A program made the position numbers and the translations under genes. Shown one piece after another: positions 75 through 16,501 of a stretch of 64,000 nt of DNA; position 1 is the first letter of the stretch; each line of letters starts with the position of its first letter. The notes below the pieces were generated by a model that worked only from the letters and a program-made list of their open reading frames with translations, made no database searches and was not told where the DNA came from. Origin of the DNA: an uncultured Gammaproteobacteria bacterium (GTDB lineage: Bacteria; Pseudomonadota; Gammaproteobacteria; QNFE01; CAZPSE01); assembly GCA_964589575.1 (NCBI GenBank), contig CAZPSE010000006.1:81-64080 (forward strand), given 5' to 3'.

Positions 75-1220
75 ATGAAATCAAAGTTAATTTTAGGAAA
101 TAGTTTATTAGTTATTGCTTCGGCACTTTATAGCTCAGCTACTTTTTCGTACAGTATAGAGATGACCAAAGTAGATGAAGTTGGCAAAACTGTCTCTATT
201 GGGGGAACGGTAGTACCTTATAAGGAAGTGACTTTGGCTGCACAAATGCCCGGTCGGGTACAATACATATTTGGTGAAGAAGGGGATAAAGCCAAAAAAG
301 GGAATGTCTTAATCGCTTTAGGCGATGACGCGTTACGCGCTAAACGTAGACAGGCTGTAGCTGGCTTAATACAAGCTGAAACAGCCCTTAAAAATGCACA
401 AGTGCAATACTCAAAAGAATTATGGTCACCCAAATCTGACGATATTAATGCCATGCCTGGTATGGGCATGCCGTCAATGTTTGATAAGTTTTTCACTAGA
501 AATGTAGGTAGCGCAATGGGTTATGGCGATAATGACTTAGATCGCCGTGCTGATTTATTTAATCAAAGCTCTAATGTTTCAAATGCGCGTTCTGTAGTTT
601 TGCAAGCTCAATCTAATATAGATCAATTGGATACAAAACTTCGTGATGCCAAATCTATTTCTGCATTTGATGGTGTTATTGTTAAAAAATTCGTAGAACT
701 GGGCGACACGGTACAACCTGGTACACCTTTAATTACAATTGCTCAAACAAAATTTTTAAGAATACGCGCAGAAATACCAGCACGCTTGGTTACAGGTTTA
801 GTACGTGGTGAATTTGTAAATGCACGCTTAGATGTTGGCAACACGCATGTTAAAGCTAGAATATCTCAAATTTATCCAGTTGCTGATGAACACAGGCATA
901 CCGTTACCGTTAAGTTTGACTTGCCAAAAGGCATACCTGGTGGGCCTGGCATGTATGCAGAAATTTCTATACCCGATATTAATGTAAAAGCTAAAGCGTT
1001 CCCAATTATTTCCAAAAAAGCGATTATTAATAAAGGTTCGTTGCCTTATGTTTATATCCTTAATGACAAAGAAGGAGCGGAACTGAGAATAGTTAGAACA
1101 GGATCAGATGCTGAAAAAGGTTATATTACCGTTTTATCAGGTATCAAAGAAGGAGAAAAAGTTATAGTGAATCCTCCCATAGATATTAAACCCGGTTGGA
1201 TGCCAAAAAAAGAAGGCTAA
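75..1220 (+). CDS. RND efflux periplasmic adaptor (membrane fusion protein, HlyD/AcrA-like)
   Basis: 381-aa ORF. It has an N-terminal signal/anchor followed by coiled-coil, lipoyl-like and beta-barrel segments typical of MFPs. It sits directly upstream of, and is co-oriented with, the RND pump gene. Confidence 0.8.
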   Translation: MKSKLILGNSLLVIASALYSSATFSYSIEMTKVDEVGKTVSIGGTVVPYKEVTLAAQMPGRVQYIFGEEGDKAKKGNVLIALGDDALRAKRRQAVAGLIQAETALKNAQVQYSKELWSPKSDDINAMPGMGMPSMFDKFFTRNVGSAMGYGDNDLDRRADLFNQSSNVSNARSVVLQAQSNIDQLDTKLRDAKSISAFDGVIVKKFVELGDTVQPGTPLITIAQTKFLRIRAEIPARLVTGLVRGEFVNARLDVGNTHVKARISQIYPVADEHRHTVTVKFDLPKGIPGGPGMYAEISIPDINVKAKAFPIISKKAIINKGSLPYVYILNDKEGAELRIVRTGSDAEKGYITVLSGIKEGEKVIVNPPIDIKPGWMPKKEG

Positions 1221-1263: not shown

Positions 1264-4200
1264 ATGTCAGATAAAAATCACGATACCGAAGAACTTGGTT
1301 TAGCTGGAAAACTTGCTAAAAACTTTATACATTCACCCTTATCACCGCTACTACTCATTGTTTCCTTAGCCGTTGGAATTATTGGTTTAATATTAACACC
1401 ACGTCAAGAAGACCCGCAAATTTCGGTACCTATGGTCGATATTTTTGTTGGTTATCCTGGTGCATCAGCTGATCAAGTTTCAACCTTAGTTGCCGTTCCA
1501 TTAGAACGAATGATGAGCGAAATAACAGGTGTTCGGCATGTTTATTCTGCCTCTCAAAGAGAAATGGGAATGGTGACCGTGCAATTTGAAGTAGGCCAAG
1601 AAATGGAAAAATCCATTTTTAAAGTTTATGACAAAATTCATTCTAATAAGGATGTTATGCCCGCAGGCGTACAAGGTGCTTTAATTAAACCAAAAGCCGT
1701 TGACGATGTACCAGCTGTTACTTTAACGTTGTGGTCAGAAGAGGTTGCTGATTTTGAATTGCGCTTGTTAGCATTGGATGTTTTACAAAAAATAAAAGAA
1801 ATACCAGACACAAGCGCAAGTTTTATAGTGGGTGGTCGTTCTAAACAGGTACGTATAGAACCCTTGCCAGAAAAACTAGCAGGTTACGGTGTAACTTTAG
1901 GTGCCCTAGCTAATACCATCAAAACAGCCAATTCAGAAATGGGAGTAGGCACGGTCGAAGCATGGGATTCATCATTTAGTATTTATACAGGGTCGTTTTT
2001 AACTAACGCAGCAGACATTGAAAAACTAGTCGTAGCCATTATTAATGGTGCGCCCGTATATATGAGTGATGTTGCCAATGTAATAGATGGCCCAGCTGAA
2101 ACCAAAAATTTAGTACATTACTATACAGGTAACGCCTATCAAGGTGATGCGAACCTCGATATGGGCGCGCCAGCGGTTACAATCGCCATAGCCAAGAAAA
2201 AAGGTAGTAATGGTGTCACCGTAGCACAAAACATTTTAGATAGAGTTGAGTCATTAAAAGGCACGCTAATACCCAATAACGTAATGGTAGAAATCACCCG
2301 TAATTACGGTGAAAGTGCAGACAAAAAAGTAAGTTCATTGCTTCAAAAATTATTTATTGCCACTGGCATCGTCGTATTGTTGGTTTGGGGGTTTTTAGGT
2401 ATTCAAGCTGCAACAGTTGTTTTAATTGTCATCCCCGTTGTAATATTAATAACTGTTTTTGCTGCGCTAGTACTGGGTTTGACTATTGATAGGGTTAGTT
2501 TATTCGCACTAATTTTCTCAATTGGAATACTAGTAGATGATGCTATTGTTGTGGTCGAAAATATCTATCGGCGATGGTTAATGCGAGGTGAAATTCATAC
2601 AGGAACATCTATAGATGCTGTTAGAGAAGTAGGAAACCCTACTATTTTAGCGACCTTTACAGTTATAGCAGCGTTAATGCCAATGGGTATGGTACGCGGA
2701 ATGATGGGTCCGTATATGAGCCCGATTCCTATATTGGGTTCAGTAGCCATGATATTTTCATTGTTTGCTGCATTTACTTTTACGCCTTGGTTGGTAATGC
2801 GTATAAAACCTTCTATGAAGCGTTTAAAACAAATGGAAGCAAAAGAGCATAAACAAGAAGTGTTTTATGAAAAATTGTATCGCTCAATTTTGATTCCATT
2901 AATTTCAAGCAAAGCAAAAGGGCGTCTATTTTTAACATTCTTGTTTGTCTTGTTTTTTGCAAGTTGTTCTTTGTTTTACTTTAATGTTGTAAAAGTAAAA
3001 ATGTTGCCATTAGACAATAAGCCAGAATTTAACGTGGTTATTAATTTCCCAGCGGGTACGGCACTACCTGTTACCGAAAATTTAATACGAAAGCTGTCTC
3101 ATAAAATAAAACAAATTGAAGAAGTAACCGCTTTGCAAACTTATGCAGGCACCGCATCGCCTTATAACTTTAATGGTTTGGTACGTCATACTTATTTACG
3201 AGAATCACCTTGGCAGGGCGATATACAAGTTCAGTTAACCGATAAAGAAACGAGAGAGCGCACAAGTCACGAAATAGCCGTAGCTGTACGCGCCATGGTT
3301 AGGCCTATTGTTAAAGCTTATGGTGCAAAAGTACAAGTAGTAGAAATGCCACCAGGTCCTCCAGTACTTCAATCTGTTGTTGCAGAAGTTTATGGACCCA
3401 CAGATGAAATTAGGCGACAAGTCGCGACAGATTTAACCGCTATGTTTGAAGAGGCTGAAAATTTAACAGATGTTGATAATTTAATGCAAAAAGAATATGA
3501 CGTTTGGCGTTTTGAAGTGAATACTGAAAAAGCAAACCGCCGTGGTGTTTCTGTTGAAGAAATTAATAAAAACTTGCTTATGGCAATGGGTGGTTTTGTT
3601 TTAGGCGACATTAAAGTAGGGCATGTATTAGAACCACGTGAAATTGTTTTACAAATACCCATGTCTGCAAGAGCAGAGTTTTCGAGAATAGGTACCTTGC
3701 CCATTATGAGTAGTCAAGGTTATACCATTCCACTTTCTGAACTGGGCGAATTTATAAAAGACAAACAAAATAAAATTATTTTCCATAAAGACTTAAGACC
3801 CGTAGAGTTTGTAACGGCAGAAGTTCAAGCACCATTACCTGCACCTGTATACGGCATGTTTGAGGTGGGCGATAAGTTGGACGATTATACCGCACCAGAT
3901 GGTGTTAAATTGTCGGGCGAATGGTTTGGCCCACCTGCAACATCGGATGTTTCAGGGTTTGAGTGGACAGGGGAGTGGACAGTAACCTTTGAAACATTTA
4001 GAGACATGGGTATAGCATTTGGAGGCGCAATTTTATTAATTTATATGTTGGTGGTTTGGGAGTTCGGTAACTTCACATTGCCAGCTATCATTATTTCTCC
4101 AATTCCTTTAACGTTAGTTGGTATCATTCCTGGTCACTGGATAATGGGGGCTGAGTTTACCGCAACATCAATGATTGGTTTCATTGCCTTGGCGGGGATA

Positions 4201-5031
4201 ATCGTCAGAAACTCGATATTAATTGTAGATTTTACCAATCAACGAGTTAGAGCTGGTGAAGAGTTAGTCGAGGCTGTGATTACATCTTGCAAAGTAAGAA
4301 CACGGCCAATTTTAATTACCGCTTTAGCTTTAATGGGCGGATCATTGGTTATTCTTGCTGATCCTATATTTCAAGGTATGGCAGTTTCATTGTTGTTTGG
4401 AATGTTTGTATCTACATTATTAACGCTTATTGTTATTCCATTAGGTTGTATTACTGCAAAGTCATCTTTTGTTTTTGATACTGACCCTGACAATGGAGGA
4501 TTTGGCGGAGGTGGACAAGTGTTGCCAAGCTCTACTCCTCCTAGTGATGCGCATGTATCTAAAGTAAAATCGTATGAACCCAGTATTATTGAAAAATTTA
4601 TTGGTTTGTTATCTATAATTGCTATATATATTGGGCTTTTATGGTCAATGTTAATGTCTATTATGCCCGCACCGATAAGAAACTTTTTTGAAAAAGTAAC
4701 AGGCTTTTTAGCCATTATTAAAATTTACTTAGGATTGTTGTTATCGCCTTTATTCGCCTTTTTTAAGTCTAAAGAGCCAGAGCCTACTGCTGTAAAAGCT
4801 CAAGTGCCTGTGCCTGCATCGACAAACACAGATACTAAGGCCAAAGAAGAAACTAAAGCCAAAGAAGACACTAAAGCCAAAGAAGACACTAAAGCCAAAG
4901 AAGACACTATTTCTAAAAAAAGCACATCGAAGAAAAAGGCTACTAGTAAAAAGAAAACAACATCAAGTAAAAAAACAACCAGCAAAAAAAATGTAAGAAG
5001 AGGGATTAAGCTTAAAAAAGATTTGGAGTAA
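1264..5031 (+). CDS. RND (AcrB/HAE-type) inner-membrane transporter with an atypical ~200-aa C-terminal extension and lysine-rich tail
   Basis: 1255 aa. The N-terminal TM1 plus large periplasmic loops and 12-TM architecture are recognisable as AcrB/CzcA family. After TM12 there are two extra hydrophobic segments and a TKAKED x4 repeat followed by an SKKK-rich tail. Confidence 0.85.
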   Translation: MSDKNHDTEELGLAGKLAKNFIHSPLSPLLLIVSLAVGIIGLILTPRQEDPQISVPMVDIFVGYPGASADQVSTLVAVPLERMMSEITGVRHVYSASQREMGMVTVQFEVGQEMEKSIFKVYDKIHSNKDVMPAGVQGALIKPKAVDDVPAVTLTLWSEEVADFELRLLALDVLQKIKEIPDTSASFIVGGRSKQVRIEPLPEKLAGYGVTLGALANTIKTANSEMGVGTVEAWDSSFSIYTGSFLTNAADIEKLVVAIINGAPVYMSDVANVIDGPAETKNLVHYYTGNAYQGDANLDMGAPAVTIAIAKKKGSNGVTVAQNILDRVESLKGTLIPNNVMVEITRNYGESADKKVSSLLQKLFIATGIVVLLVWGFLGIQAATVVLIVIPVVILITVFAALVLGLTIDRVSLFALIFSIGILVDDAIVVVENIYRRWLMRGEIHTGTSIDAVREVGNPTILATFTVIAALMPMGMVRGMMGPYMSPIPILGSVAMIFSLFAAFTFTPWLVMRIKPSMKRLKQMEAKEHKQEVFYEKLYRSILIPLISSKAKGRLFLTFLFVLFFASCSLFYFNVVKVKMLPLDNKPEFNVVINFPAGTALPVTENLIRKLSHKIKQIEEVTALQTYAGTASPYNFNGLVRHTYLRESPWQGDIQVQLTDKETRERTSHEIAVAVRAMVRPIVKAYGAKVQVVEMPPGPPVLQSVVAEVYGPTDEIRRQVATDLTAMFEEAENLTDVDNLMQKEYDVWRFEVNTEKANRRGVSVEEINKNLLMAMGGFVLGDIKVGHVLEPREIVLQIPMSARAEFSRIGTLPIMSSQGYTIPLSELGEFIKDKQNKIIFHKDLRPVEFVTAEVQAPLPAPVYGMFEVGDKLDDYTAPDGVKLSGEWFGPPATSDVSGFEWTGEWTVTFETFRDMGIAFGGAILLIYMLVVWEFGNFTLPAIIISPIPLTLVGIIPGHWIMGAEFTATSMIGFIALAGIIVRNSILIVDFTNQRVRAGEELVEAVITSCKVRTRPILITALALMGGSLVILADPIFQGMAVSLLFGMFVSTLLTLIVIPLGCITAKSSFVFDTDPDNGGFGGGGQVLPSSTPPSDAHVSKVKSYEPSIIEKFIGLLSIIAIYIGLLWSMLMSIMPAPIRNFFEKVTGFLAIIKIYLGLLLSPLFAFFKSKEPEPTAVKAQVPVPASTNTDTKAKEETKAKEDTKAKEDTKAKEDTISKKSTSKKKATSKKKTTSSKKTTSKKNVRRGIKLKKDLE
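4834..4905 (+). repeat. 4 x 18-bp perfect/near-perfect in-frame tandem repeat (actaaRgccaaagaagaM) encoding TKAKEE/TKAKED
   Basis: Read directly in the sequence. Units start at 4834, 4852, 4870 and 4888. Confidence 0.95.
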
Positions 5032-5044
5032 AAAGTGAATTATT

Positions 5045-5503
5045 ATGAAGACTAATTTATTCTTATTAAGCTTTAGTTTAATAAGTTTTATAGCAACTGC
5101 AGATACTAATATAAAGCCGCCTCCAGGGCCTTATATTAGTAAGTCTATGGCGATGAAGTTACAACAGGTATTAGAAACAACTGTAGATGCGCCACATTTT
5201 AATTCGTACCCAGAGTTTGAAAATTCAAATTCAAACAAGCTAATAATCATTCCTCAAGCAAAACTTCAAAAACCGGTTATAAGCAAAAATATACAAAAAG
5301 AGGATGCTTTTCAAAAGTATCCCCGTATTAATCAACAAAATTTAACCGAACCATTAGTGATTAAAAATAAAAACATAATGTATGATCAAAAGACGAATGA
5401 TAATACAAAAAATTTTTGGGATGTTGATCCTAAATTTTTACACGATGAAAATAAAGAATCACATTTACCCAAAAATAAGTTTTTAGAATATCCACCTCTA
5501 TAA
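5045..5503 (+). CDS. Secreted protein of unknown function (signal peptide)
   Basis: 152 aa with a hydrophobic N-terminal signal. It starts 14 bp after the RND stop, and its stop overlaps the next start (taATG). I recognise no conserved motifs. Confidence 0.5.
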   Translation: MKTNLFLLSFSLISFIATADTNIKPPPGPYISKSMAMKLQQVLETTVDAPHFNSYPEFENSNSNKLIIIPQAKLQKPVISKNIQKEDAFQKYPRINQQNLTEPLVIKNKNIMYDQKTNDNTKNFWDVDPKFLHDENKESHLPKNKFLEYPPL

Positions 5504-6234
5504 TGAAAAAAAACGTATTAAACTTATTATTTTTAACGTTACTTTTTAGTGATAACGCATTTTCTATAAGCTATGAAGCAACAGCGATGTCAAAAACCAA
5601 TAACCTTACGTCAAGCAGTAAAGTTTTTGTAAAAGATAATAAAGTTAGAATTGAGTATGCAGCCAATGATGAAAAGTTTATTCAAATTAGTAATCCTTCA
5701 AAAAAACGCAGTTGGGTTTTATTAGAAAAAGATAAAACTTACATTGAGTCTAAAACTTCGATGGATCTTTTGCCTAAATCGTTAAAAATAAACTTAAAAA
5801 AACTGTGTAAGCCTAAAAATATAAAATGTTTTAAAGGCAAAGAAAAGTGGATAAATGGAAAAAAAACCCGAGAATGGAAAATTGAACTGTATAAAAACAA
5901 ATCAAAGACGGTTTCTTATCTTTGGGTCGATAGTGTATCTGGCATACCTATCAAACAAAAATATGCTGATGGCAGTTATACAGAGTTAAAGTTTATTAAA
6001 AATGAATTGGTAAATAATCGAAAAACACAAAAGTGGCAATTAACTTTGGTAAATAGGCTAAAACAAAAAATACATGTTTATCAGTGGTTTGATCCTAAAC
6101 TTAATTTAACAATAAAAGAACTTTATCCTGATAATTCTGTTAAAGAACTAAAAAATATTAAAATAAAAAAACTTAAAGATAGTCTGTTTACGCTACCTAA
6201 AGGTTATGTAAAAAATACTCAGTTAAATAATTAA
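5503..6234 (+). CDS. Secreted/periplasmic protein, possibly LolA-like fold, unknown function
   Basis: 243 aa with a signal peptide. It is a lysine-rich beta-type sequence and is translationally coupled to the upstream ORF. Confidence 0.45.
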   Translation: MKKNVLNLLFLTLLFSDNAFSISYEATAMSKTNNLTSSSKVFVKDNKVRIEYAANDEKFIQISNPSKKRSWVLLEKDKTYIESKTSMDLLPKSLKINLKKLCKPKNIKCFKGKEKWINGKKTREWKIELYKNKSKTVSYLWVDSVSGIPIKQKYADGSYTELKFIKNELVNNRKTQKWQLTLVNRLKQKIHVYQWFDPKLNLTIKELYPDNSVKELKNIKIKKLKDSLFTLPKGYVKNTQLNN

Positions 6235-6255: not shown

Positions 6256-6885
6256 ATGGTTACTGTAATAGGAAACTTAAAAGGCGGAACAGGTAAAAGT
6301 ACAGTTACCTTTAACCTTGCAATTTGGTTATTAGCATCCGATAAAGATGCGGTTATTTATGATTTGGACCCACAACAAACACTGAGTGATGTAGCAGAAG
6401 TTCGCAAAGATGAAAATATACAACCCGCTATTAAAGTAAAAAAGACCTTATCTACTATAAAAAAAGATATTGAAGATGGTAAAGAAATTTTAATAGACAT
6501 AGGCGTGTCTAACATGACCGCTGTGAAAAAAGCGATTGCTTTAGCTGACAGAGTGGTTGTGCCTATTCAACCTAGTCAGGCGGATATTTGGGCGACTCAA
6601 CGGTTTTTAAAAGTGATTAAAGAGGCTGCTGGAAATAGAAAAATTGAAGTATTGGGTTTTGTTAATAGAGCCGATACGCATCACGCTGTGCGAGAAACAG
6701 CAGAAACCGAAGAAGCCATTCAGTACTTACCAGGCATTAAACATTTGGACGTACGTTTGTATCAAAGAACGGCTTATAGACGTTCTTTTAGTGAAGGCTT
6801 GGCAGTTTTTGAGATGGGTTTATCATCTAAAGCGGCTAAAGAAGTCATGAAATTTTCTCACTTACTTTATAAAGACGTCAAGTAA
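6256..6885 (+). CDS. ParA/MinD-family P-loop ATPase (orphan, no ParB)
   Basis: Has the deviant Walker A GNLKGGTGKST at the N-terminus. At 209 aa it is small, like ParF/Soj-type ATPases. Confidence 0.75.
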   Translation: MVTVIGNLKGGTGKSTVTFNLAIWLLASDKDAVIYDLDPQQTLSDVAEVRKDENIQPAIKVKKTLSTIKKDIEDGKEILIDIGVSNMTAVKKAIALADRVVVPIQPSQADIWATQRFLKVIKEAAGNRKIEVLGFVNRADTHHAVRETAETEEAIQYLPGIKHLDVRLYQRTAYRRSFSEGLAVFEMGLSSKAAKEVMKFSHLLYKDVK

Positions 6886-6886
6886 A

Positions 6887-7414
6887 ATGGAAAGTATTTT
6901 TAAGTTTTTTTTGGGTAAATTAATCTTTTTAGTTTTTTTAGGGCTAATTGCTTACATCGTTGTGTTTAAAGAGAATATAGTTTCTGAATTTACAAAATAT
7001 CAACAATCTAGCAAAGAGCTTGTTATAACCAAAGCTGAAGTAAAAACGCCTAATAAATTAGTTTTTGTCAATAAAGTTGATATTGAACCTTCACCCAAAG
7101 CGACTTTAAATACAGCTAGATTACTTTTTCTGGATAAAAACTATTCAGCATCAATTAATGAATATAAACGGTTGATTAAAACCAATAAGTCTAATGTTGA
7201 CTATCACGGAGAATTAGCCAATGTGCTTTATGGCACCGGTTTAATAGATGAAGCTGTAAAAGAATTTTATTTGACAGCCGAGCTTTTAATAGAACAAAAT
7301 GACTTATTTAGAGTCCAACGAATTCAAAATGTCTTGTCTACTTTAGATGAAGAAAAATCCAAAAAAATATTAAAAGACATTACTAATGCACGAGGCATTA
7401 ATAAAGAACTTTAA
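6887..7414 (+). CDS. Membrane-anchored protein with TPR-like helical repeats
   Basis: 175 aa. One N-terminal TM helix (LIFLVFLGLIAYIVVF) is followed by helical repeat-like sequence. It starts 2 bp after the ParA-like gene. Confidence 0.45.
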   Translation: MESIFKFFLGKLIFLVFLGLIAYIVVFKENIVSEFTKYQQSSKELVITKAEVKTPNKLVFVNKVDIEPSPKATLNTARLLFLDKNYSASINEYKRLIKTNKSNVDYHGELANVLYGTGLIDEAVKEFYLTAELLIEQNDLFRVQRIQNVLSTLDEEKSKKILKDITNARGINKEL

Positions 7415-7431: not shown

Positions 7432-8928
7432 ATGTTTAATAAACCCAGCCAAGAAATAGAAGAAAAACTAAATAATTTAGTTACTCATCTAAAAGAAGAA
7501 AACCCAATATTAATTGAAGTAGTTGATGATTTTAGATCAATAGACTTAGTAGGCCGAAGATTAGGGCTAATAACTGCGGATGAATCGTATACTGCTAAAA
7601 TTCCTTGGTGGCCATTGATTTCGATTTTAGGCACATTTTCTTCTGGTAAATCTACGTTTATTAATGATTTTATGGGTAGGACACTACAGCGATCGGGTAA
7701 TCAAGCTGTAGATGATAAATTTACTGTGGTGTGTTACAGCGACAAAGAAGATGGGCGAGTATTACCTGGAATCGCTTTAGATGCTGATTTACGTTTTCCA
7801 TTTTTTAAAATGAGTGACGAAATTGACAAGGTAAGTGAAGGAGAAGGACGACGTATTGATTCTTATTTACAATTAAAAACGACCACCTCAGAAATTATGA
7901 AAGGCAAAATTTTAATTGATTCGCCTGGCTTTGATGCAGATGCTCAGCGAACATCTACATTAAAAATTACCGATCATATTATAGATTTGTCTGACTTAGT
8001 TTTAGTGTTTTTTGATGCACGCCACCCAGAACCGGGTGCAATGCAAGATACATTAGAACATTTGGTTGGTAATACCATTCATCGTCCAGATTCAAACAAG
8101 TTTTTATTTATCTTAAACCAAATTGATACAACAGCGAGAGAGAATAACCCCGAAGATGTTGTAGGTGCATGGCAGCGCGCGTTATCTCAAAAAGGTTTAA
8201 CAGCTGGAAGGTTTTATTGTATTTACAATGAAAAAGCCTCTGTGCCGATAGAGGACGATACATTAAGAGCGCGTTTTAAACAGAAAAAAGATGAAGACTT
8301 AGGCGACATTATGGACCGAATTCATCAAGTAGAAGTAGAACGTTCTTATAGAATTGTCGGTTCATTAGAACAAATAGCGCAAGATATAAAAGAAGTGCAT
8401 GTTCCTAATATAAAAGGCTACCTTAATAGTTGGTCTAAAAAAGTAATAACCTCAGATTTTATTTTGTATGCTCTTATTATTATTGCTTGTTTATACCTTT
8501 CTATAAGTAATGGTTACTGGAATGGGTTGAGTTTAAGTGTTCCATTTTTTAATGAACTGGGCATGGCATTAAAAGGCTTAGTTGTTTTTATGGTCTTTTT
8601 TGTTTTAGCGGGTATTCACTTTATGAATCGCTCGATAATGGTTCGGTGGGTCAATAAAACGATTGTAAAAAATGGTGATGAGCAGTATCAGCGAGCGTTT
8701 AAGAAGAACACGGTTTTTTGGCGAAGTATATTTAGAGATAACCCAGTAGGCTGGAGAAGGAACAGTAAAAAACGTTTAAAAACAATTATTTCTAATACGT
8801 CTAAGTTTGTACAAAATTTAAATAATGAATTTACTAATCCATCTGGCAAAGTTGCAGAAGCTACTGCGCAAGTGGTTGAAAAAACTACTGCGGTTGAAAA
8901 TACAGAAGTAAAAGAAGCAACTAAATAA
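7432..8928 (+). CDS. Dynamin-family/large P-loop GTPase with C-terminal double-TM anchor
   Basis: G1 GTFSSGKSTFIN, G3 DSPG and an NQID G4-like motif. Two hydrophobic helices lie at about aa 340-400, followed by a basic C-terminal tail. This is the last gene before a strong terminator. Confidence 0.6.
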   Translation: MFNKPSQEIEEKLNNLVTHLKEENPILIEVVDDFRSIDLVGRRLGLITADESYTAKIPWWPLISILGTFSSGKSTFINDFMGRTLQRSGNQAVDDKFTVVCYSDKEDGRVLPGIALDADLRFPFFKMSDEIDKVSEGEGRRIDSYLQLKTTTSEIMKGKILIDSPGFDADAQRTSTLKITDHIIDLSDLVLVFFDARHPEPGAMQDTLEHLVGNTIHRPDSNKFLFILNQIDTTARENNPEDVVGAWQRALSQKGLTAGRFYCIYNEKASVPIEDDTLRARFKQKKDEDLGDIMDRIHQVEVERSYRIVGSLEQIAQDIKEVHVPNIKGYLNSWSKKVITSDFILYALIIIACLYLSISNGYWNGLSLSVPFFNELGMALKGLVVFMVFFVLAGIHFMNRSIMVRWVNKTIVKNGDEQYQRAFKKNTVFWRSIFRDNPVGWRRNSKKRLKTIISNTSKFVQNLNNEFTNPSGKVAEATAQVVEKTTAVENTEVKEATK

Positions 8929-8933
8929 AGCCT

Positions 8934-9021
8934 AAAAGCCCCTAAATCGTCGACCCCTTGCTTATTAGAAGTTGAAAAACCCCTAATAAATAAGCAAGGG
9001 GTCGACGATTTAGGGGCTTTT
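8934..9021. terminator. Perfect 33-bp-arm palindrome forming a long hairpin followed by a T-run; it embeds two inverted copies of the GTCGACCCCTTGC repeat
   Basis: aaaagcccctaaatcgtcgaccccttgcttatt ...loop... aataagcaaggggtcgacgatttaggggctttttt. Confidence 0.85.
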
Positions 9022-9092
9022 TTATGACGACAATATTTTATTAATATAAAATACCATGCTTAAAAATTAAAGCACAACACAAAGGTAATGTA

Positions 9093-11929: not shown

Positions 11930-13069
11930 CTATTCGGCTAATAAATTAACTAAAGCGTGGTAATAAACTTCGGTCAATTGGTTTAAATCATCTACCGCTA
12001 CACACTCATCAATTTGATGAATGGTTTTATTTAGTGGGCCAAACTCCAATACTTGGCTACCCGTTGGGGCAATAAACCGACCGTCAGATGTACCACCTGC
12101 GGTTGATAATTTAGTATCCAGCCCTGTCACTGTTTTTATCGCTTTTACTACGCCGCTTACTAATTGCCCAGGTTCTGTCACAAAAGGCATGCCAGACAAG
12201 TTCCAGTCTATTTTATATTCCAAATTATATTTGTCTAATATCGCGGTAAATTTTTGTTTAATATCCTCTGGAGTTAGTTCTGTAGAGAAACGAAAATTAC
12301 TCATTATTTCTAATTCGCCAGGTATTACATTGTTTGCACCAGTACCCGCATTAACATTAGAAATTTGAAAAGTAGTAGCAGGGAAAAAGTCATTGCCGTT
12401 ATCCCAAGTGGTGTTTATTAGCTCTTCTAATGCTGGAGAAAATGAAAATAACGGGTTGTTTGCAAGGTGAGGGTAGGCAACATGCCCTTGTTTACCAATA
12501 ATGCTAAAATTGGCAGATAACGAACCTCTACGGCCATTTTTGATGGTATCACCCAGTTTATTGGTGCAAGACGGTTCGCCAACTAAACACCAGTCTATTT
12601 TTTCATTTCTTGCTTCTAATGTTTCAATCACTCTAACGGTGCCGTCTTTAGCTGGGCCTTCTTCGTCGCTGGTAATTAAATAACCAATAGAACCTTTATG
12701 GTTAGGGTAGTCGTTTACAAAACGCTTACTGGCTACCATAAAACAGGCTATAGAGCCTTTCATGTCGGCCGTTCCACGCCCGTACATTACCCCGCCGATA
12801 ATATCGGCAGAAAAAGGAGGGTGTGTCCATTTATCGGCATCGCCCGTAGGCACAACATCGGTATGCCCTGCAAATACTAAAAAGGGTTTTTCTGTTCCAC
12901 GACGCATCCATAAGTTTTCGGTATCGTTAAAGTTCATTTTTTCGACGCTAAAACCGTCATTTTGTAAATAGTCGCTTATAATTTTTTGACAGCCTTTATC
13001 GTCTGGCGTAACAGAATCTATTTGAATTAGTCGTTGAGTAAGGCGTATTGTTTCTGAATTTTTAGTCAT
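11930..13069 (-). CDS. dapE: Succinyl-diaminopimelate desuccinylase
   Basis: 379 aa M20 peptidase with a GHTDVVP motif. It is collinear with DapE. Confidence 0.88.
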
Positions 13070-15734
13070 TAGAAATTGTTTGGTATAGGTTAGTAATTTG
13101 AGCGGTTAACTCGCTATGTAGTTGTTTTAATTCATCTTCTTTTAGTTGTTTGTCATCAAAGTTAGAGATAAATAATACATCGTCTATTTTTTCACCAATG
13201 ATGCCAATTTTTGCATTATGCACACGTATTTTATGGTCGTATAAAACTTGCGTAATTAAAGACAATATACCTGGGGCATCTGTAGCGGATATATGCAATA
13301 CAGTTAAATCTTTCCAAGTAGAAAATATTAGCCGTATGTAAGGGTCAAAGTGTTGGTGAGTATGGTATTGCGTTTTACGGTGATGGGGTTTAGGTTTTTC
13401 ATTGTTTTTTATAGCGTTATAAATGGCGGTATGGATTTTATCCATAACATGCCCATCTGATATGGCTTTTAAGTTATTGTCGATAATAGAAAAGTTAAAT
13501 AACGATTTATTGTCTTTAGAAATAATAATGCGTGATTCTAATATATTAATATCCATTCGCTCTAAAGCGTTACAAATGATAGAAAACAAACGGTCTGTAT
13601 TTTGAGTGTATATAAAAACATTACTGCATTGTTTTATATCGTCATTGTAAATATGTACCAAGGGTGCGTTAGACTGGTGGTTAATTATTGCCCGTGTATG
13701 AACAATAATGTCAAATTCATGATACCTAATAAAATAACCTTTTCTAAAACTGTCCCAAAGATCATTTATTTGTCCTAAATCACAGTCTTCTAAGGCTAAT
13801 TGTTTGGTGCAAGATAATTTTTTCTCTAACACAGTTTCGTCTATGTCTATAGGGTTGTCTAAGCCTCGCCTCAATAGGTTGAGCGTTTTATTGTACAAGT
13901 CGCTTAGCAGTTGATACTTCCAGTCTGACCATGCTTGAGGGTTGGTGGCGCGCATATCGCATATAGTTAGTAAATATAACTGCCTTAAATAATTAACAGA
14001 GCCAACTCTAATAGCAAACTCGTGTATTACTTCTGGGTCGGTTAAATCTTTGTGTTGTGCGGTAGTTGACATGATTAAATGGCTGGCGACCAACCAAGAC
14101 AGTAATTTGGTATCTACCGACGACATATTATGCTTTATGGCAAAATCTTTGGCTTCAATTGCCCCTAATTTGGCATGATCACCTTTACGGCCTTTGGCAA
14201 TATCATGAAATAAACCGGCCAAAAATAATACTTCGTTTTTAGGCAGTTTTTTCATAATGGCGCTGCAATCAGGAAACTCGTGATTGTGTTCTTCAATAGC
14301 AAAACGTCTTAAATTACGTACCAACATTAATGTGTGTTGGTCTACCGAATATACATGGAATAAATCATATTGCATACGCCCAACAACGTTTTCAAAAGCC
14401 GGTATATAACGGCTTAGCACCCCGTAACGTGCCATGCGCCTTAGTTGATGCGTTAAACCGTCTGGGTATCTAAATATATTAATAAACAATGTCTTACAAA
14501 TACTATCTGATCTAAATTCTTCATTAATTTCGTCTAAATTATTACGTATTTGGCGTATGGTTTCGGCACGTACACCAATAATTTCTTGATGGGTTGATAA
14601 GATAACAAAAGTTTCTAAAATAGCCGGTGGAAACAGTTTAAATAACTCTTCAGATTGGGTTTCTAAATAGCCGTTTCGTACCTGAAAGCGGTTGTTAATT
14701 CTTACAATTTCTTGTTTTTGGTTTTTAAATAAAATTTCTTCTTTAAACAGTTGCATTAACAGTTCATTAATTCGCGACAATTCGGTAATGGTTTTAAAGT
14801 ACCGTTGCATTAGCTGTTCTATGCGGTCATTTAATCGTTCGCCTTGGTAACCCAATACGTCAGATAGGGTTTGCTGGTAATTAAACAACACTCGGTTTTC
14901 TTGTCTTTTTGCAAAACCATGCAGCAAAAAACGTATTAACCACAAAAAGTTTCTGCCTTCTATTAAAGCATTACACTCATCTTCTTGTATAAAACCTATG
15001 CGTTTCATACGGTTTAAGTCATTAACATTAAAGGCGCGTTTTAATACCCAAATAATATTATGGATGTCTCGTAAGCCACCGGGGCTTTCTTTTAAGTTAG
15101 GTTCTAATTTGTAACTGGCATCGTTAAATTTTTCATAACGAATATTTTTTTCTTCTAATTTTGCCTCAAAAAACTGCTTTTTATCCCACATTTTATCAAC
15201 AGCTAAAGCGGTTTCCATTTGCTTAAATAAATCCTTTTTACCCGCAATATAAAACCCTTCCATTAAATTAGTAATAACGGTAATGTCTTTTTCTGCTTCT
15301 TGGCGGCACTCTTCAATACTACGAACGGTGCTGCCAATGTCTAAACCTGTATCCCATAAAAAGGTTATAAAACCCGATAATGTTTCTGCGTGGGTGTCTT
15401 GTGTATTTTCTTCATACAATATAACAAGGTCAATGTCAGAGTGGGGCATCAGTTCACGTCTGCCATACCCGCCTACTGCGGCTAGGCACAAGTCGTTATT
15501 GTCTTTAAAAAAGTGTGCCCAAATATTTTGTAATACAAGGTCAATGCAATAAACTTTGTATTTAACAACGGTTTCAATATCGTCTGTGTTGTTAATTAAG
15601 TAATTAACTAAGTCGTCATTGTTATTACGTATGTGTTGCTTAATTGCAATGGCTAGCTGAATATTGTTTTCGTAGTTTTTCTCAAAAAGTTGTTCAACTT
15701 CTTGCTTAATAGAATCGTAGACGCTAAATAACAT
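13062..15734 (-). CDS. glnD: PII uridylyltransferase/uridylyl-removing enzyme GlnD
   Basis: Nucleotidyltransferase, HD and ACT domains. The ORF extends to 15845, but the likely start is the MLFSVYD Met at 15734, which abuts the map stop. Confidence 0.88.
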
Positions 15735-16501
15735 TAAATGGTTTCGCCTTCGCGTAAAGTTAACACCTCTACACCTGTTTTGGTTACTAATAAGGTGTGT
15801 TCCCACTGGGCAGACAGGCTTCTGTCTTTTGTTACTACCGTCCATTCATCTTTTAAAACTTTAATTTCTTTTTTACCTAAATTAACCATAGGCTCAATAG
15901 TAAAAGTCATGCCTTCACGCAATAGGGGGCCGGAATCTTTTTTACCGTAGTGTAATACTTGTGGCTCATCGTGAAACTTTTCGCCAATGCCATGGCCGCA
16001 GTATTCGCGCACTACGGTGCAATAATTTGCTTCGGTATACTTTTGTATAGCAAAACCAATCTCACCTAGCCTTACACCGTCTTTAACTTGTTTAATGCCT
16101 TCTATTAAGGCTTGGTGTGCAACGGCAACAATACGTTTCCCTTGTACTGTGGCCTTACCTATAAAAAACATTTTACTGGTATCACCGTGGTAACCGTCTT
16201 TAATAACCGTAATATCAATATTGATAATGTCGCCTTTTTTTAAAACTTTATCACTAGGTATACCATGACAAACTTGTTGGTTGGTTGATGTGCAAATAGA
16301 TTTAGGGAAACCGTGATAATTTAGTGGGGCAGGGATGGCTTGTTGCTCGTTTACTATAAAGTCATGACAAATCTTGTCCAGTTCATTAGTGGTAACCCCC
16401 GCTTTAACAAACGGTTCTATCATTTCTAAAACTTGCGCGGCTAAACGCCCAGCCACGCGCATTTTTTGTATTTGATCTTCTGTTTTTATTTCTATAGCCA
16501 T
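15734..16501 (-). CDS. map: Methionine aminopeptidase
   Basis: 255 aa with conserved metal ligands. It is divergent from rpsB, as in E. coli. Confidence 0.93.
   Translation of the reverse strand: MAIEIKTEDQIQKMRVAGRLAAQVLEMIEPFVKAGVTTNELDKICHDFIVNEQQAIPAPLNYHGFPKSICTSTNQQVCHGIPSDKVLKKGDIINIDITVIKDGYHGDTSKMFFIGKATVQGKRIVAVAHQALIEGIKQVKDGVRLGEIGFAIQKYTEANYCTVVREYCGHGIGEKFHDEPQVLHYGKKDSGPLLREGMTFTIEPMVNLGKKEIKVLKDEWTVVTKDRSLSAQWEHTLLVTKTGVEVLTLREGETI

Follow-up and report, generated by a model that had tools for sequence, protein, structure and literature searches.

The 64,000 nt of contig CAZPSE010000006.1 analysed here (GenBank assembly GCA_964589575.1, positions 81 to 64,080; the whole stretch is referred to below as the window) come from an uncultured gammaproteobacterium and carry, at the end of an operon, a gene that a first-pass annotation made from the letters alone had described as encoding a membrane-anchored dynamin-family GTPase. 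The locus raises the question of whether the encoded protein, termed here the dynamin-like protein (DLP), is a dynamin at all, which of the known dynamins it most resembles, and what it would do beside the genes of an RND transporter. The DLP is a member of the dynamin superfamily. The reading that we prefer, with a probability of about 0.6, is that it is an EHD-like dynamin, anchored in the inner membrane by a hairpin, which tethers or remodels membrane at an envelope transport module.

The features of the gene and its product, including the transmembrane (TM) helices and the elements taken from an AlphaFold2 (AF2) model, are as follows.

7432..8928, + strand: DLP gene, with an ATG start and an intact open reading frame of 498 amino acids (aa), encoding a membrane-anchored dynamin-superfamily nucleoside triphosphatase (NTPase)
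7450..7563, + strand: N-terminal helix pair, residues 7-44, which holds the invariant HLxxENP
7609..8226, + strand: G domain, residues 60-265, with G1, switch I, G3, FDARHPEPG and NQID inside it
7630-7656, + strand: G1 motif GTFSSGKST, residues 67-75, from the sequence
7696-7728, + strand: switch-I region GNQAVDDKFTV, from the sequence
7918-7929, + strand: G3 motif DSPG, residues 163-166, from the sequence
8011-8037, + strand: FDARHPEPG motif, from the sequence
8116-8127, + strand: G4-like motif NQID, residues 229-232, from the sequence
8257..8442, + strand: long stalk helix after the G domain, residues 276-337, predicted to run unbroken into TM1 (AF2 model)
8443..8625, + strand: TM hairpin, with TM1 at residues 338-360, a loop at 361-375 and TM2 at 376-398 (Kyte-Doolittle)
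8680..8847, + strand: conserved C-terminal region, predicted to be cytoplasmic, residues 417-472, with the motifs WRSIF, PVGW and VQNLNNEFTNPSG

Family membership, predicted fold and membrane topology

The Pfam model Dynamin_N matched the DLP at 52.8 bits (gathering cut-off 27) over residues 63-230 of the protein and positions 1-167 of the 168 in the model, and PF00350 was precomputed on essentially all of the main-branch homologues listed. The 50 best matches of the predicted structure in the PDB, as found with Foldseek, were all dynamin-superfamily proteins, and with the Dynamin_N score they bear out the assignment to the dynamin family. Models of other TRAFAC GTPases scored far under their cut-offs (Era 20.4 bits against 237, EngA 15.6 against 307 and YlqF 16.1 against 208); those of the Era/EngA/YlqF type as a whole reached 16-20 bits against cut-offs of 116-307 and covered only P-loop-sized stretches or pieces from G3 to G4, and MMR_HSR1 gave a weak match around the P-loop (22.4 bits). 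The best profile match was not to a family of Era, EngA or YihA type, which the first-pass annotation had named as the outcome to look for against a dynamin.

The motifs that had been reported in the protein (GTFSSGKST, DSPG and NQID) were all present at the places given for them, and its length of 498 aa was correct. Among 44 members of the main branch, G1 took the form LG[TV][FY]S[SA]GKS[TS] and four further stretches were almost invariant (GNQAVDDKFTV, I.IDSPGFDAD.QR, FDARHPEPG and LNQ[IVL]D). Such near-invariance of G1, G3, G4 and FDARHPEPG implies, as far as sequence can tell, a functional active site. In the G4 consensus of dynamins, N/TKxD, the Asp reads the guanine base. EHD proteins use ATP, a Met directly after G4 blocking the guanine amino group (PMC5084822), whereas the residue after D232 in the DLP family is Thr, Ser or Ala, with family forms such as LNQIDTT and LNQIDTA. 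Because the G4 Asp is invariant and no EHD-type Met comes after it, the substrate of the DLP is probably GTP rather than ATP.

A search of the PDB sequences with the DLP as single query gave EHD4 as the best match (E-value 6e-5), together with EHD2 and, weakly, IniA (E 0.013). A profile of the family gave the same ranking (EHD4, E 2e-5), and the EHD4 profile alignment spanned G1, the loop between switch I and G3 (PGxAL.DP..PF) and FDA[HR]. The Pfam families EHD_N and EHD helical domain had no match to the DLP at E ≤ 1.

The AF2 model was computed from an 80-sequence alignment that included a branch of ~30 % identity, and had a predicted local distance difference test score (pLDDT) of 90 and a predicted template modelling score (pTM) of 0.84. 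It comprised two N-terminal helices (7-23 and 26-44, pLDDT 87-98), a single uninterrupted helix from residue 276 to 359 that turned into TM1 (pLDDT 92-98), a helix from 378 to 413 that contained TM2, and further helices at 417-426, 443-468 and 470-497; pLDDT was 95-98 over residues 410-470, including helix 443-468. Five residues of the N-terminal pair (H19, L20, E23, N24 and P25) were invariant in the family alignment. The model thus consisted of one helical bundle with a long helix leading straight into the hairpin, ~60 helix residues lying between the G domain and TM1 and ~100 residues after TM2. We infer from it that the N-terminal helices pack into the bundle beside the G domain; in EHD and BDLP-type proteins the N-terminal helices join the helical bundle too. 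The C-terminal region probably packs back onto the bundle. As modelled, the protein would have a minimal EHD-like build, made up of an N-terminal helix pair, a G domain, a stalk helix running into a TM hairpin and a C-terminal helix.

Foldseek placed EHD4 first (5mvf and 5mtv; E 4e-11 to 1.5e-10, template modelling score (TM-score) 0.62-0.66 on target length, alignments covering ~470 columns), followed by membrane-bound EHD4 (7sox) and EHD2 (4cid, with 2qpt at rank 9). After the EHDs came Campylobacter DLP1/2 (5oxf, 5owv), IniA (6j72), truncated Mfn1/Mfn2 and BDLP (2j69), and lower down dynamin, Drp1, SynDLP and truncated Fzo1. Atlastins and GBPs were absent from the top 50 matches. A resemblance to the bacterial proteins BDLP and LeoA had been proposed beforehand; it stands in so far as bacterial DLPs gave significant fold matches, but the DLP has a single bundle with no trunk and no paddle, and EHD4 and EHD2 are nearer to it.

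Two membrane helices had been expected at about residues 340-400, and two segments of TM grade were found there: the 19-residue Kyte-Doolittle means were 2.27 (338-356) and 2.28 (377-395), the usual threshold for a membrane helix being 1.6, and exactly two hydrophobic peaks were present in 75 of the 80 family members. Lys and Arg (K/R) averaged 3.4 in the 15 residues before TM1 and 5.4 in the 25 residues after TM2 in the 80-member alignment, and 1.6 in the ~20-residue loop between TM1 and TM2. The enrichment on the two flanks points to a positive-inside, N-in/C-in hairpin and indicates that both termini and the G domain are cytoplasmic. On these sequence features the DLP would be fixed in the inner membrane by a two-helix hairpin, whose short predicted outside loop (361-375) contains GYWxGL. 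The tail (406-498) is net basic, as had been noted, with 18 K/R against 9 Asp and Glu, but it is a conserved, predicted-helical element instead of a mere basic tail. It carries the family motifs WRS[IV]F, P[AV]GW and VQxLN[DN]xFTNPSG in invariant or near-invariant columns, and these, with the confidently predicted helices, argue for a structured module and not a loose polybasic anchor.

The EHD ATPases (EHD1-4; 5mvf, 5mtv, 4cid, 2qpt) are thus the best solved match to the DLP by sequence and by predicted fold. The two share the G domain, the PGxAL.DP..PF loop, FDA[HR], a single helical domain that touches the membrane at its tip and that would, in the DLP, combine the N-terminal helices with those after the G domain, and a P-loop in which an aromatic residue precedes Ser (GQYSTGKT in EHD, GTFSSGKS in the DLP). 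Unlike the EHDs, the DLP is bacterial, with an identity of only ~14-16 %; it lacks the EH domain and its linker, the C terminus being made up of the TM hairpin and the conserved tail; it contacts the membrane by a true TM hairpin, whereas the EHDs do so by a polybasic helix; and its G4 is NQxD followed by Thr, that of the EHDs NKxD followed by Met, so the ATP rule of the EHDs does not apply to it (PMC5084822).

Atlastin/Sey1p and mitofusin/Fzo1 are dynamins known for membrane tethering and fusion (PMC5084822), and the DLP would share their topology: the G domain lies in the cytoplasm next to a helical bundle, two TM helices form a hairpin, and the conserved helix at the C terminus is again on the cytoplasmic side; the truncated Mfn1/Mfn2/Fzo1 constructs gave significant Foldseek matches. 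Atlastin differs in its GBP-type G domain, its RD motif at G4 and its position outside the top 50 structural matches. The mitofusins are 740-860 aa long and have a second bundle (HD2), compared with ~500 aa and one bundle in the DLP, for which fusion is suggested only by analogy. BDLP of Nostoc, Campylobacter DLP1/DLP2, IniA, LeoA and DynA/DynB are, like the DLP, bacterial Dynamin_N proteins at the cytoplasmic membrane, and IniA provides a precedent for a bacterial DLP that is induced with, and protects against, envelope stress (PMC6715688). Proteins of the BDLP type are 570-1200 aa long, have neck and trunk bundles with a lipid-binding loop or paddle, and are usually paired (PMC6104087), whereas the DLP is a shorter product of a single gene, in which the TM hairpin comes directly after one stalk helix and which has invariant motifs of its own (FDARHPEPG, NQxD and FTNPSG). 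The DLP therefore belongs neither to the EHD family (no EH domain, no Met rule) nor to the BDLP/mitofusin class (one bundle, unpaired), and it is not an atlastin or GBP, an Era-type GTPase or an Eleos defence dynamin. By analogy it is most like a stripped-down anchored dynamin, in which the topology of atlastin and mitofusin is set on an EHD-like scaffold.

Conservation of the family and of its gene neighbourhood

A word-indexed search returned 5,141 homologues of the DLP at E ≤ 1e-3, of which the best 120 were 54-77 % identical to it across the full length; numbers and identities of this order rule out chance. These 120 came from Thiodiazotropha, Sedimenticola, Solemya symbionts, Chromatiales and Granulosicoccus, and those that had been named were called 'dynamin family protein'. 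Public records thus already recognize the homologues as dynamins, and bacterial DLPs with a membrane anchor have precedents. When 1.84 billion representatives at 50 % identity were searched exhaustively, only 730 clusters reached E ≤ 1e-3 and 109 reached 1e-30. Judged by these sequence comparisons, the family forms a tight group that stands clearly apart from other dynamins. At least 559 confirmed DLP loci were identified when one genome per GTDB species was scanned, the best 80 being almost all from Gammaproteobacteria. The DLP is common in sulfur-oxidising Gammaproteobacteria, and the earlier remark on the rarity of bacterial DLPs does not apply to this family.

A divergent branch of ~30 % identity, annotated as 'hypothetical protein', was found in the Methylococcales (Methyloprofundus, Methylobacter and Methyloglobulus). 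Its members keep the N-terminal helices, the TM hairpin and the LND motif of the tail (P0154, P0155, P0164, P0166 and P0170), and their G1, G3 and G4 are degenerate (for example IGGNSTAKSR); the branch is probably a non-catalytic pseudo-NTPase derivative. Methanotrophs are known for their intracytoplasmic membranes. Elsewhere in the family, long low-complexity additions were seen on the same core, rich in Ala, Ser and Glu at the N terminus of one protein (P0125, 733 aa) and in Pro, Ser and Lys at the C terminus of another (P0124, 698 aa).

Gene linkage was compared in 84 related loci, of which 38 were fully flanked, with at least 9 kb on each side of the DLP gene. Homologues of the RND permease and its periplasmic adaptor (MFP) were present in 52 of the 84 loci and a ParA-like gene in 51; among the fully flanked loci, 28 of 38 had the RND module (MFP and RND, with ParA in most) beside the DLP. 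The genes occurred in two layouts, one co-directional as in the window (MFP, RND, ..., ParA, a TPR or DUF302 gene, DLP) and the other divergent, as in Thiodiazotropha, Sedimenticola and others, where the DLP gene adjoins an oppositely oriented series (DLP > adjoining < MFP < RND < ... < ParA). That the linkage is kept in two layouts suggests a functional tie under selection rather than inherited synteny.

Within the window, the DLP is the last of seven co-directional genes with intergenic gaps of -1 to 43 nt, a run that is closed by a terminator; the description of the gene as embedded in an operon was correct. The other elements of the operon are as follows.

75..1220, + strand: RND periplasmic adaptor (MFP), first gene of the cluster; Pfam HlyD_D23 and HlyD_3, NCBIfam RND_mfp at 159 bits, above the cut-off
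1264..5031, + strand: RND permease of 1255 aa; ACR_tran at 470 bits over residues 19-1060
5045..5503, + strand: small secreted protein of 152 aa with a signal peptide and low complexity, from the sequence
5503..6234, + strand: periplasmic protein of 243 aa with a signal peptide, LolA superfamily by the Pfam matches of its relatives, the AF2 model and Foldseek
6256..6885, + strand: ParA/MinD-family ATPase of 209 aa; Pfam CbiA, AAA_31 and MipZ
6887..7414, + strand: small membrane-anchored TPR protein of 175 aa, directly upstream of the DLP; N-terminal hydrophobic helix, weak TPR_11 and TPR_16
8934..9027, + strand: intrinsic terminator directly after the DLP stop codon, closing the operon; a perfect hairpin of 32 bp, then T6

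The terminator RNA folds at -61.3 kcal/mol (z -12), and its hairpin is unusually long for an intrinsic terminator. No second copy of the 32-bp repeat was found in the window. The genes after the terminator are glyA, nrdR and ribD, and the remaining window sequence holds core chromosomal genes (glnD, bamA, a PBP1-type gene, guaB, guaA, xseA and mfd); with core genes as neighbours and a terminator repeat that is unique in the window, an origin as a mobile island was rejected. The Pfam scan revealed no second Dynamin_N gene in the cluster of the window.

The chromosomal setting of the DLP was also considered at loci where it stands without RND and ParA genes. Those of Granulosicoccus have a long neighbouring gene that appears, by eye from the sequence, to be RNase E-like, and at others (L042, L050 and L074) the DLP follows glnD-moaC-like genes, again by eye. 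In the window, glnD (13062-15845, - strand, confirmed with Pfam) lies ~4 kb downstream of the DLP. This hints at an ancestral chromosomal position near glnD, where the RND/ParA module was either inserted or lost.

The RND permease of the window is divergent, its best NCBIfam subfamily model scoring 434 bits against a cut-off of 1250, and it has a C-terminal extension of ~195 aa (residues ~1060-1255) with two extra hydrophobic segments and a basic tail rich in Lys, Thr and Ser, in which KAKE[ED]T repeats were noticed. The RND proteins linked to the cluster in other genomes had a median length of 1354 aa; nearly all possessed one or two extra hydrophobic segments, and their tails had 20-40 K/R in the last 120 residues. 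The extension was the same in kind across clusters (L001, L005, L009, L012, L013, L015, L032 and others). These cytoplasmic tails of ~100-250 residues, rich in Lys, Arg, Ser and Thr, are probably disordered, and the ParA-like ATPase or the DLP might make contact with them.

The 243-aa protein of the window itself had no Pfam match above threshold and a homologue search with it gave only three matches, whereas among 24 relatives DUF4412 was matched in 10 (best E 2e-11), MucB_RseB in three and LolA_like in one. Its AF2 model, from a shallow alignment, had an all-beta fold (pLDDT 84), and its best Foldseek matches were LolA3, NE2245, RseB, EPDR1 and LolA (E from 2e-6 to 1e-4), for which the TM-scores were modest (~0.4). 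On the model, the protein has a LolA-superfamily fold. Known ligands of proteins with this fold are lipids, the acyl chains of lipoproteins and lipopolysaccharide, and such a partner points to a lipidic cargo for the RND module. The ParA-like ATPase has a deviant Walker A motif (KGGTGKST) and reached 135.9 bits with the NCBIfam model ParA_partition, below the cut-off of 180. After profile iteration, homologues of the TPR protein were found in 24 of the 84 loci; its slot is elsewhere taken by a DUF302 protein and/or a small protein with a TM segment and a coiled coil (DUF948-like). The 152-aa secreted protein, encoded between the RND and ParA genes, is rich in Asn, Lys and Pro; it had no Pfam or NCBIfam match, and an iterated profile search of the 84 loci found no homologue.

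Accessory genes varied among 46 clusters: LolA-like genes were present in 20, a gene for a 131-aa protein in 19, DUF302 in 17, the small TM and coiled-coil protein in 16 and TPR in 15. An initial guess that the 131-aa neighbour family (f5) is SCP2-like had no Pfam support. Secreted low-complexity proteins rich in Arg, Pro, Tyr and Gln were seen in clusters of the Thiodiazotropha type (L013:1601-2782, - strand, and L015:2899-3525, - strand).

Proposed mechanism and alternative explanations

EHD proteins scaffold curved membrane necks, and the membrane-anchored dynamins atlastin and mitofusin, together with EHD, are the analogues from which a mechanism for the DLP can be proposed. Upon nucleotide binding, the G domains of neighbouring DLPs would pair, either in cis or across two membrane surfaces. 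Hydrolysis would then make the helical bundle swing against the G domain, and the force of the swing would enter the bilayer through the hairpin, directly so because the stalk helix is continuous with TM1 in the model. The outcome would be a cytoplasmic membrane that is tethered, bent, fused or pinched. Behind this scheme stands the biology of the superfamily, in which G domains pair and hydrolysis drives a swing of the helical domain (PMC5084822). The genetic tie to the RND/ParA envelope module suggests that the DLP probably acts at a transporter of hydrophobic cargo, where it would keep the inner membrane intact, repair it or reshape it. Among bacterial DLPs, IniA cuts membrane tubes in a GTP-dependent manner and has been proposed to mend the plasma membrane when the cell wall or envelope is stressed (PMC6715688), and DynA clusters at membrane lesions (PMC12998192). 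The analysis itself shows to which superfamily the DLP belongs, its motifs and TM hairpin, the predicted fold and the kept gene linkage; we infer the preference for GTP, the dimerisation of G domains, the power stroke and what happens to the membrane, which may be fusion, fission or scaffolding.

Several observations weigh against the preferred reading. The G4 of the family, NQxD, keeps the Asn and the Asp and has Gln in place of Lys, and the position that aligns with switch I of the EHDs has no Thr; with these two departures, the nucleotide preference and the catalytic competence of the DLP are tentative. The packing of the N- and C-terminal helices into the bundle is a prediction drawn from Foldseek alignments, secondary structure and confidence scores. 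In about 10 of the 38 fully flanked loci the DLP has no RND/ParA neighbours, and the DLPs of the Methylococcales branch stand alone (L085 and L086), which implies that the link to the transporter is not obligatory and that the DLP can work by itself. Exactly one DLP match was found per locus in the 84 loci, with no paired or tandem copies, and bacterial DLPs usually act as operon pairs (PMC6104087). In the literature, no description was found of this DLP family or of a cluster of dynamin, RND and ParA genes.

The DLP might instead be a classical GTPase of the BDLP/LeoA/IniA type, peripheral or inserted by a paddle, with neck and trunk, that polymerises for fission or fusion. Campylobacter DLP1/2, IniA and BDLP were indeed significant in Foldseek (E 3e-9 to 4e-8), IniA was matched weakly by sequence as described above and LeoA weakly in PADLOC (17 bits). 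We nevertheless regard this as unlikely, as the DLP is 150-700 residues shorter, has in the AF2 model one bundle with the hairpin directly after the first helix that follows the G domain, and is without a paired DLP gene; TM-scores normalised on BDLP-type targets were 0.23-0.34 compared with 0.62-0.66 for EHD4, and the EHDs were also ahead by sequence.

A second alternative is that the protein is a dedicated accessory of the RND transporter, which with the ParA-like ATPase clusters, positions, inserts or gates the long-tailed pumps, its NTPase cycle acting as a switch. In its favour, the RND/MFP/ParA linkage is kept in two gene orders, and the linked RND proteins share an extra hydrophobic segment and a K/R-rich tail that may be a contact site. 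Against it, about a quarter of the fully flanked loci and the whole Methylococcales branch have a DLP without the RND cluster, and we know of no dynamin that is a transporter subunit; the idea is accordingly doubtful.

Bacterial dynamins can serve in phage defence (PMC12998192), and the DLP could be an anti-phage or abortive-infection dynamin (Eleos/LeoABC or DynA type) that seals or sacrifices the membrane on infection, an idea with which the weak LeoA match in PADLOC would agree. That match amounts, however, to 17.1 bits (E 6e-4) over 86 residues only, there is no LeoBC-like partner and the DLP has no PHROG match; an Eleos/LeoA defence system and a phage origin were both rejected on these grounds. 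The gene lies at a core-chromosome site among housekeeping genes (glyA, nrdR, ribD, glnD and bamA), and an identity of 54-77 % among the best 120 homologues, with a spread over hundreds of species, is unlike the patchy occurrence of defence islands. No convincing match to a known defence system came from the cluster proteins searched, among them the TPR protein, the ParA-like ATPase and the DLP itself, and a defence function is very improbable. That the protein is a membrane-tethered TRAFAC GTPase of the Era/EngA/YihA kind and no dynamin, to which only the weak MMR_HSR1 and Era/EngA/YlqF matches near the P-loop would lend themselves, is effectively refuted by Dynamin_N covering the whole 168-position model at twice the cut-off, by the low and partial scores of the Era/EngA/YlqF models and by the dynamin-superfamily identity of every top structural match.

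A bolder extension of the preferred reading, speculative and for the present improbable, is that the long-tailed RND pump and the LolA-fold carrier make up, with the DLP and the ParA-like ATPase, an envelope machine not yet described, which sulfur-oxidising Gammaproteobacteria and their relatives would have. The dynamin, in this view a minimal EHD-like one with atlastin topology, would fuse or pinch inner-membrane invaginations, which may be those around periplasmic storage compartments or those for lipid export, the ParA-type ATPase would position the machine, and the family would be the closest prokaryotic relative of the EHDs.

Significance for bacterial dynamins

As a finding, the DLP is solid and will not surprise specialists; its appeal is as a minimal model. 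Membrane remodelling by bacterial dynamins is known from a handful of large, usually paired, peripheral proteins whose cellular roles are debated. The DLP family is a simpler object, consisting of one gene for ~500 residues, with a single bundle that the model joins to the hairpin and with catalytic motifs conserved across hundreds of species. Most of its carriers are uncultured organisms or are sulfur oxidisers and symbionts that are hard to grow, which is a practical caveat. With so small an anchored dynamin one could conveniently study how the power stroke of the G domain is passed into the bilayer, a question that is open for atlastin and mitofusin, and the repeated linkage to RND and ParA genes, often with a LolA-fold protein, offers a testable handle on the role of a bacterial dynamin in the envelope. 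The resemblance to EHDs is relevant to where the EHD branch came from; if the family were indeed its closest prokaryotic relative, this supposedly 'eukaryote-only' branch would gain a bacterial root.

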